Below, one piece after another: positions 1-832 of a stretch of 5,271 nucleotides of DNA. The stretch lies in IMG/VR virus record IMGVR_UViG_2713896905_000002, positions 1-5,271 of that record. One strand, given 5' to 3'. Made by a program: the position numbers. Source of the DNA: a virus. Its lineage: Duplodnaviria > Heunggongvirae > Uroviricota > Caudoviricetes. How positions within the stretch are numbered: position 1 is the first letter of the stretch; each line of letters begins with the position of its first letter.

Positions 1-832
1 CGTTGTAAACGAACGAGTAAAGAGCGCCGCGCGTTGTTTCCGGTATATCGACTTTGATGTACGGGTTAATTTGTCTGGCGACCGTGGCAAGGTCTTTATT
101 CAGGAGGGCTTTGCATTCTGCTTCGGTATACGTTTTACCGAGCATGATGTCTTTTCCGGTGTGTCCGTGACATACAGTCCATACGCCAACGATATCTTTG
201 TATGGTATGTAGCTGACACCTTCCAGGCCATCGTCACCACTCGGACCAGTGATGAGCACAGACGCTATGGCAACAGCCCCACCACCAATAGCAGCAGCAA
301 CAGCCTTGCGTAATGATGGCGGCATTATTCACCTCTCGCAGCCTTACGCTTATCTTCTTTAATCTTGAAATAAAGGTTTGTCAGATACGTCAGCAAGCCC
401 AGAACCAGACTCCCCAGTACACCAATCGCAGCCCACTGTGACGGACTGACCTGATCAAGCCACTGTAAAAACCAGTAGCCAGCACTGCCTGCGGAGGTGC
501 CGTAGGCAATGCCCGTTGAAATTTTGTCCATGGATTTCATAGCCTCACCTCCGCAAATAACGGATGGCGTAGTTTTACACTGAGAAATGAAAGGGATTTG
601 AAAAGAAAAAACCGCAAAAGCGGGCGAAACGATATATACAGTAAGGAAAGCACTCTATCCAACAAACCACCCACAGTTAATCGGAATAAAAGCAGAGTGC
701 TTATGAATGATCGCCTGCCCGAAGGTTAGTATTTCTGCACAGCAATTTTGCAAAAAAAAGCGATCATTCATAACTTAAACGTCTTTCAGTCACTCCGGGA
801 TTTCCCATCATCGCAGACTGAAAGACTCTAAC

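Follow-up and report, generated by a model that had tools for sequence, protein, structure and literature searches.

The external transcribed spacer of the Escherichia coli glyW-cysT-leuZ operon, 3'ETS-leuZ, is said, following the 2015 work of Lalaouna and colleagues, to act as a sponge for small RNAs (sRNAs). The tRNA cluster of phage T4 is co-transcribed with two stable RNAs, species 1 and 2 (rnaC and rnaD). In lambdoid prophages, the region downstream of the antiterminator gene Q and the late promoter pR' forms a slot for morons, filled by stx in Shiga toxin (Stx) phages, and prophage sRNAs cluster there (PMC4104026). Here we analyse a spacer in this slot in a virus of the Caudoviricetes (IMG/VR record IMGVR_UViG_2713896905_000002, positions 1 to 5,271; this whole stretch of 5,271 nucleotides is referred to as the window). 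The spacer covers positions 541-832, between an array of four tRNA genes and the holin gene S, and a first-pass annotation of the window had rightly placed it at the site where Stx phages carry stxAB.

Based on comparative analyses of this locus, we propose that a prophage tRNA operon lies within the late-gene leader and that the minus strand from 832 to 600 forms its structured 3' trailer, with a freed RNA that would act in trans and a terminator that would insulate the genes behind it. We regard this proposal as a whole as probable. Its structural and positional parts are very likely correct, and the trans action of the trailer RNA, to which conserved loops and strands, the analogy with 3'ETS-leuZ and the neighbouring sRNA cassettes point, is put forward tentatively and with some doubt. 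The conserved fold, the strand, the non-coding nature, the position next to the tRNAs, the promoter geometry and the terminator are established by the sequence comparisons described below.

Results

Comparative evidence for a conserved folded RNA

The spacer contains the two perfect inverted repeats that the first-pass annotation had located, one of 14 nt (701-714 with 760-773, 100% complementary, 45 nt apart) and one of 11 nt (781-791 with 816-826, 100% complementary, 24 nt apart), as well as a third perfect pair of 9 nt that it had overlooked (648-656 with 694-702). These repeats exceed chance: among 2000 dinucleotide-preserving shuffles of 541-832, an inverted repeat of at least 14 nt was never obtained and one of at least 11 nt three times, and none of the shuffles combined a repeat of at least 11 nt with a second of at least 9 nt. 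The minus-strand RNA from 832 to 590 folds with -76 kcal/mol (z = -4.7), a stability reached by 0 of 200 shuffles, and the plus-strand fold is weaker (-58.5 kcal/mol, z = -3.6).

In a hand-picked set of 23 aligned sequences, the consensus fold comprises 60 pairs in seven helices, and the same helices are present in the minimum-energy fold of the window. Here, 97.4% of the cells are paired, as opposed to 39-47% when the partners are slid against each other, and 0 of 500 shuffles reach the observed pairing or covariation score. A larger set of 60 distinct sequences, aligned with a covariance model (R1), behaves in the same way, with 96.3% of the cells paired and 37 of the 60 pairs changed on both sides, compared with 13.4 +/- 1.9 in shuffles and 11-18 in slid controls. 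The repeat arms are hence conserved among related prophages with compensatory changes, a point that the first-pass annotation had proposed to check. The pairing also identifies the strand. G-U cells number 417 and A-C cells 27, and canonical pairing drops to 83.6% if the alignment is read in the opposite sense. The excess of G-U over A-C therefore assigns the function to the minus strand of the window, in agreement with the earlier proposal of consecutive stem-loops in the minus-strand transcript right after the last tRNA.

No plausible open reading frame (ORF) had been noted in the spacer, and this view is upheld: all ORFs are of 45 aa or less, and every frame is broken by variation of a T-run and by 1-nt indels. 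No reading frame is conserved among the homologues, in which the T-run in domain B varies between 6 and 9 T among near-identical copies and indels separate the lineages. On these comparisons the spacer encodes a non-coding RNA with a conserved fold, about 230 bases long and closed by a terminator, at a place where RefSeq annotates nothing in complete E. coli genomes.

Architecture of the RNA

The RNA is composed of three domains, A, B and C, in the direction of transcription (Table 1). The two helices of domain A (helices 1 and 2) display changes on both sides in 11 of 17 pairs among the 60 sequences. They enclose an internal loop that fits the kink-turn (K-turn) motif, reportedly defined by Klein and colleagues in 2001 and treated in reviews by Lilley. 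A canonical stem ending in a C-G pair is followed by a 3-nt GAU bulge, an invariant tandem G.A/A.G, a U.G pair and then the short second stem, GGG/CCC. Within the core, positions G1b, A2b and A1n are kept in 42/42 sequences and G2n in 40/42, and the -1b.-1n pair is C-G in about 40/42. The difference from established K-turns is that the match of domain A is one of sequence pattern, and a kinked geometry is what knowledge of the motif would predict. We know of no L7Ae-family protein in E. coli. Weak Rfam matches to C/D-box RNAs in the spacer (E = 5-9) are at chance level and are accounted for by this K-turn-like pattern.

We note that the inner part of domain A (GAUGAUGGG...CCCG, 792-815) resembles the variable-loop/T-arm segment of the adjacent tRNA-Gly (GAUGAUGCGGG...CCCGC, 845-875), both read on the minus strand. 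At one locus (L207), a deletion has joined inner domain A with tRNA-Gly between short repeats common to both. Domain A may descend from a partial tRNA duplication.

Domain B forms a three-way junction, in which 11 of the 15 pairs of the outer helix are changed on both sides. The long stem is retained where the interior has been deleted (L228) or replaced (L208). With its 15-16 bp, it could stack on the 8-bp hairpin B1 in the predicted fold. At another locus (L088, 2420-2960, minus strand), domain B is interrupted by a moron of some 540 bp that is flanked by a duplicated 5' arm of B; its product is a small protein with a signal-peptide-like N-terminus, and STnc100-like sequence and a tRNA fragment are located upstream.

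Domain C is a long irregular hairpin whose helices (6 and 7) are changed on both sides in 12 of 18 pairs. In the upper helix, the 3' strand GGGUGGUUUGUUGGAU is nearly invariant, and the opposite strand drifts through changes compatible with G-U pairing (0.12 bits of variation in the 3' strand vs 0.59 in the 5' strand). The 3' strand also served as a search key; it is equally invariant in sequences retrieved with the keys in B and A.

A candidate tRNA operon within the late leader

A candidate sigma-70 promoter precedes the tRNA array. In 65 of 67 distinct upstream sequences its elements are arranged as TTGNNN-17-TANNNT-9/10-tRNA start, although the spacers have diverged. The GC-rich discriminator is like those of stringently controlled tRNA and rRNA promoters.

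The first tRNA of the array, tRNA(CAU), is assigned to Met by ARAGORN and to Ile by RefSeq. The last two, tRNA-Thr(UGU) and tRNA-Gly(UCC) (833-986), are 100% identical to thrU and glyT of the host operon thrU-tyrU-glyT, and the order Thr-Tyr-Gly is kept in some relatives; the tRNA cassette therefore looks as if it had been captured from the host. Copies of the host thrU/glyT are found in 5421 of 5426 genomes, with about 1100 extra copies compared with 584 places that hold the spacer element.

The element is placed closely behind the tRNAs, starting within a few nt of the tRNA 3' end in most relatives. The core of B lies 76-77 nt past the tRNA end when domain A is present and about 20 nt past it when domain A is missing. 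Depending on the phage, the tRNA preceding domain A is tRNA-Gly, a chimeric tRNA-Thr or tRNA(CAU). Chimeric or truncated tRNAs (L005, 1645-1718; L007, 1640-1680; L002, 3170-3250) share the 3' segment ...GGTTCGATTCC..GCCCGCTCCA just before domain A, and in L007 an HNH endonuclease gene stands in place of the 5' part of the tRNA. The single-stranded linker between the CCA end of tRNA-Gly and domain A is the presumed entry of an endonuclease that would free the trailer RNA.

At the far end of the trailer, the GC hairpin with a U-tract that had been noticed earlier is present but weak (CCGC-UUUU-GCGG, then UUUUUUCUUUUC), and it was missed by a scan requiring five pairs. Most close relatives have a 6-bp terminator stem, GCCCGC/GCGGGC. 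A strict terminator is found at most 90 nt after domain C in 53 of 66 distinct versions, with some six more falling short by a single mismatch. The position, 13-47 nt after C and behind variable linkers, is filled by at least four unrelated terminator sequences, and the depositors of phage HK639 annotated a terminator at the matching site. By its position, from the end of tRNA-Gly at 833 to the terminator at 623-600, the element belongs with the 3' external transcribed spacers of tRNA operons. In the simplest reading of the locus, the late leader contains an autonomous tRNA operon that runs from the candidate promoter through the tRNAs and the structured trailer to the terminator.

Distribution and neighbouring cassettes

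Of 5426 complete E. coli genomes, 530 contain the spacer; its 584 places are all chromosomal and mostly >95% identical, with a median of one copy per genome and up to five in some. Carriers include E. coli 042, FDAARGOS_943 and phi467 lysogens. The element is further present in four temperate phages, and a 76%-identical version in HK639. Motif scans detected additional copies in IMG/VR contigs and in genomes of six other enterobacterial species, with matches in Phytobacter, Enterobacter hormaechei, Shigella flexneri, Yokenella and Citrobacter sedlakii, and 65 of the 71 metagenomic loci retrieved with the domain-C motif are members. The element is absent from the Stx phages of the phage collection, and no O157-like strain is in the list of E. 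coli genomes with it; therefore strain Sakai probably lacks it. The Hfq-CRAC (cross-linking and analysis of cDNA) sRNA table for enterohaemorrhagic E. coli (EHEC) holds several RNAs of about 220-270 nt in Sakai prophages.

Neither the Q family upstream of the element nor the holin downstream of it is constant, and the element is independent of the type of either; in 90 of the 93 loci with sufficient flanking sequence it is followed by a lysis gene on the same strand. In two relatives, the next cassette after the element is STnc100 (RF02076) with its own terminator (L002, i.e. HK639, 2706-2911; L004, 1234-1426). The leader can therefore be described as a string of RNA-plus-terminator cassettes.

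Genomic setting

According to its ORFs, ARAGORN and Pfam, the window, read on the minus strand, corresponds to the late-regulatory part of a lambdoid prophage. The order is NinF, NinG and a Ser/Thr phosphatase, LpxR, Q, a terminator hairpin, the four tRNAs, the 292-bp spacer, S and the start of a lysozyme gene. The gene for the LpxR-family lipid A deacylase (PF09982) is on the opposite strand (2230-3600), in an island of very high AT content that separates the phosphatase gene from Q; this gene family has been linked to PasD (bioRxiv 10.64898/2026.05.13.724894). The terminator of the tRNA-trailer unit would shield S. The leader immediately before S is outside the conserved RNA, and relatives carry other cassettes in its place, for example STnc100.

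Judging from its place after Q, the palindromic hairpin at 1263-1292, which the terminator scan reports on the plus strand, presumably represents tR' and would end the short late-promoter transcript upstream of the tRNA promoter. The minus-strand stretch 1262-1345, from the presumed pR' to this terminator, contains sub-threshold matches to the Salmonella prophage sRNAs isrK/isrJ (1264-1337), and is in the same position as StxS of Stx phages (PMC7547250).

Table 1. Features of the tRNA-trailer unit and its surroundings in the window.
Feature	Coordinates	Strand	Details	Basis
Terminator hairpin after Q (tR' position)	1263..1292	-	minus-strand reading GCCCACAAGCGGGUUUUUUU	inverted repeat
Candidate sigma-70 promoter of the tRNA array	1152..1180	-	-35 TTGCAA 1180-1175; 17-nt spacer; -10 TATTAT 1157-1152; 9-nt GC-rich discriminator	consensus scan
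Four tRNA genes	833..1142	-	tRNA(CAU), Lys(UUU), Thr(UGU), Gly(UCC)	ARAGORN, Rfam tRNA matches, RefSeq near-identical locus
Linker, tRNA-Gly CCA end to domain A	827..832	-	GUUAGA, single-stranded, A/U-rich	unpaired in consensus fold
Domain A	781..826	-	hairpin of 11-13 bp (the 11-nt repeat); K-turn-like internal loop 815-807 with 796-792; apical GGG/CCC stem	
Domain B	701..773	-	three-way junction	inverted repeat, single-sequence fold, consensus fold
Domain B, outer stem			14-16 bp (the 14-nt repeat)	
Domain B, hairpin B1	756-749 with 739-732	-	loop AAAUUGC	
Domain B, small hairpin	725-718	-	CC-UUCG-GG	
Domain C	648..702	-	long irregular hairpin: 8-9 bp base, 6-7 nt A/U-rich bulge, upper helix (contains the 9-nt repeat)	
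Intrinsic terminator of the tRNA-trailer unit	600..623	-	stem CCGC/GCGG 623-612; U-tract 611-600 (U6CU4C)	fold
Leader of the lysis genes	541..599	-	Shine-Dalgarno GGAGGUGAGG at 552-543 before the S start codons	sequence
S, phage 21-type class II holin	325..540	-	71 aa, dual start (MKSM)	ORF list; Pfam PF04971, E = 7e-36
Antiterminator Q				Pfam PF06323

Search for known families and targets

At permissive thresholds, Rfam 15 yielded only tRNAs and chance matches, for the whole window as well as for the spacer alone. STnc100 gave no match in the window at E <= 1, nor in 560-840 at E <= 10. Membership of this family was defined by the gathering threshold of 47 bits or by recognisable similarity to PasD1/PasD2 of strain E2348/69. 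The same scan detects STnc100 at 52-72 bits in HK639 and L004, and PasD1/2 at 38-41 bits, just under the threshold, in agreement with the common ancestry of PasD and STnc100 claimed in a preprint (bioRxiv 10.64898/2026.05.13.724894). Comparison of the spacer with the pas loci of E2348/69 by blastn returned only chance matches of 10-14 nt, and model R1 found nothing in the corresponding loci L127 and L128, which removes PasD as a candidate. PasA was discarded since neither blastn nor model R1 matched the E2348/69 pasA region (L127), and PasC was judged through this same region, with which pasC is reported to be alignable; in E2348/69 both genes lie immediately before the holin, on its upstream side. 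The strain of enteropathogenic E. coli (EPEC) used for RIL-seq (a ligation-and-sequencing method for RNA interactions) is without the element according to model R1. Covariance models of AgvB, AsxR, Esr41 and IsrK (RF02702, RF02703, RF02676 and RF01394) have no match in the spacer. The element is not described in the Pas papers or in the EHEC anti-sRNA paper. Full-text literature searches with the conserved motifs, written as DNA and as RNA, gave no pertinent result, and the literature on HK639 and on prophage tRNA-spacer sponges names no such element. Resemblances to GcvB (a 9-mer, GUCUGCGAU, in common) and to the 5' end of MicF (8 bp) are at chance level.

Pairing of the conserved single strands with the starts of S, R, Q and lpxR, with the pR' RNA and with the tRNAs did not exceed shuffles, with one borderline exception. 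This is a duplex of 15 positions between the 3' strand of domain C (658-673) and the T-arm/acceptor/CCA 3' end of the first tRNA, tRNA(CAU) (1067-1085), both on the minus strand; at -21.7 kcal/mol and p ~0.01 among 30 tests, it is treated as chance.

Discussion

Based on the conserved fold and its placement, we propose that the tRNA-trailer unit operates as follows. Transcription would start at the dedicated sigma-70 promoter just before the first tRNA and, when Q is present, also at pR', and the polymerase would pass the four tRNAs and then the folded domains A, B and C. In the lysogen, it would stop at the intrinsic terminator, by which the constitutive tRNA promoter would be kept from driving the holin and endolysin genes, and in lytic growth Q-modified polymerase would read through. 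In conjunction, tRNA processing would cut the A/U-rich linker after the CCA end, releasing an RNA of about 230 nt that is guarded by hairpin A at the 5' end and by the terminator hairpin at the 3' end. The released species would most likely serve as a stable RNA acting in trans, with a protein or other RNAs as its ligands, much as 3'ETS-leuZ sponges sRNAs. Selection appears to act on the helices and on specific loop and strand sequences alike, and we therefore argue that the RNA has a job of its own; its transcription, processing, stability and trans action are steps that we infer. Among the roles suggested in the first-pass annotation, a discrete sRNA-like RNA fits best, together with a terminator that would shield S and R, and a processing role next to the tRNA CCA end is plausible. 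Attenuation through pairing with the start of S is not supported, as the element is found upstream of unrelated holins, about 60 to about 700 nt away, and has unrelated terminators after it. A riboswitch or attenuator was likewise rejected, given the unrelated terminators after C, the varied linkers and the lack of any Rfam riboswitch match.

The main rival to a trans-acting trailer is a role purely in cis, on the Q-antiterminated late transcript. Stem B would then be an RNase III-type site, A and C would protect the ends, the tRNAs would be cleanly excised, the S-R-Rz mRNA would receive a structured, stable 5' end, and the freed piece would have no function. We consider this unlikely but well worth weighing. 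The best-kept feature of B is indeed its uninterrupted stem of 14-16 bp, with compensatory changes and survival through loss or exchange of the interior (L228 and L208, respectively), the element is always located between the tRNAs and lysis genes of the same strand, and domain A begins 6-7 nt past the CCA end. RNase III substrates typically comprise about two helical turns of double strand, however, and stem B is shorter than this. Conservation of the K-turn core, of the loop of B1 and of the 3' strand of C moreover goes well past the needs of end protection, and the terminator, often together with more sRNA cassettes, puts 60 to 700 nt between the element and the holin. A different elaboration, in which A to C form one compact RNA (K-turn, three-way junction and long hairpin with an invariant GU-rich strand) that travels with phage tRNA cassettes and binds a specific host or phage protein, is decidedly unlikely in our estimate; possible partners would be a tRNA-targeting defence nuclease, for which the RNA would be a decoy, an RNase or a lysis-timing factor. 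If so, the element would represent a novel functional class among phage non-coding RNAs and not one more sRNA that acts by base pairing.

Explanations at the level of DNA, of a pseudogene or of a protein fit poorly. That the repeats serve as a protein-binding or recombination site, a miniature inverted-repeat element or a boundary scar of moron exchange, with incidental RNA folds, would be in line with the recombination hotspot seen here, where cassettes are shuffled at the tRNA 3' end and at the terminators, with the 540-bp moron in B and its duplicated arm (L088) and with the deletion between repeats common to tRNA-Gly and A (L207). Yet DNA palindromes do not demand the strand-specific pairing observed, some of the seven covarying helices are not palindromic as DNA, and the element has no target-site duplications and a single fixed genomic context rather than a dispersed one, making this very improbable. 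A miniature inverted-repeat transposable or other insertion element was also discarded as an identity, as there is no flanking direct repeat, all E. coli places are chromosomal and a lysis gene follows so regularly. The scar of moron gain or loss considered in the first-pass annotation is not supported for the window, where the element is an intact, selected structure, although the relative L088 does hold a moron inside domain B. Nearly as improbable is a decaying remnant of duplicated tRNAs or of an older cassette, carried along by linkage and functionless beyond its terminator. The likeness of inner A to the tRNA-Gly variable-loop/T-arm segment (GAUGAUG(C)GGG...CCCG), the tRNA fragments common nearby (HK639 and L007) and the truncated or deleted versions (L125, L185 and L198) would agree with decay, but double changes maintain the helices across lineages sharing about 76% identity, the loops vary less than the stems, and the element persists in six enterobacterial genera. 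A small protein is the most improbable of all. Candidate ORFs of 38 aa (771-655, minus strand) and 43 aa (598-729, plus strand) do exist, the latter being annotated as a hypothetical protein in ON470583 and ON470580. The variable T-run lies inside the minus-strand ORF, however, which has no Shine-Dalgarno before its ATG and in the HK639 lineage changes ATG to TTG with an altered frame and stop, and the plus-strand ORF does not survive a 1-nt indel in C that distinguishes the lineages. As its frame is not conserved, the 43-aa annotation, which overlaps domains C and B, is probably spurious.

Several points weigh against a structured trailer with a trans-acting product. The promoter, the processing and the discrete RNA are all inferred, and a purely cis role, be it in processing or in stabilising the late mRNA, would explain the conserved stems equally well. 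The terminator stem of the window has only 4 bp. Diversity is shallow, with essentially two or three lineages and their recombinants, and many compensatory cells therefore trace to few events. Alignments A2 and A3 were fitted to the model, and because exact motifs in B, C and A served as keys for gathering the homologues, those stretches look more invariant than is warranted. Individual domains can also occur apart (A and B only; B and C only after the tRNA; C only; the shortened B of L228; the replaced B of L208), which weakens the case for one integrated fold with a single function, and no convincing target was found in the window.

In conclusion, about 10% of complete E. coli genomes and several enterobacterial genera appear to carry an RNA where current annotation is blank or lists a hypothetical protein that is spurious. 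The non-coding RNAs of the Q-to-holin leader in lambdoid prophages thereby gain a large, well-folded member; the same slot is home to Shiga toxin and to the Pas, STnc100 and AgvB RNAs, by which host regulation is reshaped. In addition, the prophage tRNA cassette looks like a complete operon, with a conserved candidate promoter, a structured trailer and a terminator, and its tRNAs would therefore be expressible in the lysogen without switching on lysis. The covariance model and the defined helix targets make the function directly testable.

Relation to known systems

The closest parallel is 3'ETS-leuZ, which appears as 3'ESTleuZ in the EPEC RIL-seq tables. Both RNAs are located between the last tRNA and the intrinsic terminator of the operon, both are conserved beyond the needs of termination, and the release by tRNA processing that frees 3'ETS-leuZ is predicted for the prophage element as well. 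In contrast, 3'ETS-leuZ is about 50 nt long and chromosomal, with Hfq binding and RyhB/RybB as targets shown, whereas the element presented here is about 230 nt long, prophage-borne and built of three covarying domains. The T4 RNAs species 1 and 2 are likewise structured phage RNAs of unknown function that originate from a tRNA-array precursor; they belong to an unrelated phage group, and the likeness is one of description.

Within the slot itself, STnc100 (RF02076), PasD1 and PasD2 are comparable in their location between Q and the holin genes, in a length of about 200 nt, in their terminator end and in their linkage with Q, LpxR and a class II holin (PMC8550237; bioRxiv 10.64898/2026.05.13.724894). 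They share no sequence or covariance-model similarity with the element, which is tied to the tRNA 3' end as STnc100 is not, and PasD is an abundant, Hfq-bound RNA confirmed by northern blot, whereas the element is a predicted RNA. The anti-sRNAs AgvB and AsxR and the RNA StxS, from the pR' moron region of EHEC prophages, are also non-coding RNAs downstream of the Q-controlled late promoter, in the stx slot (PMC4104026; PMC7547250). However, AgvB and AsxR are of 51-60 nt and convergent to late transcription (PMC4104026), and StxS is the pR'-tR' transcript itself (PMC7547250). Judged from its sequence, the element is hence a new candidate family of RNAs at a site of a familiar kind and not homologous to the named RNAs of the slot. 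Most of these are smaller and less elaborately folded, and the element is in addition physically linked with tRNA genes.

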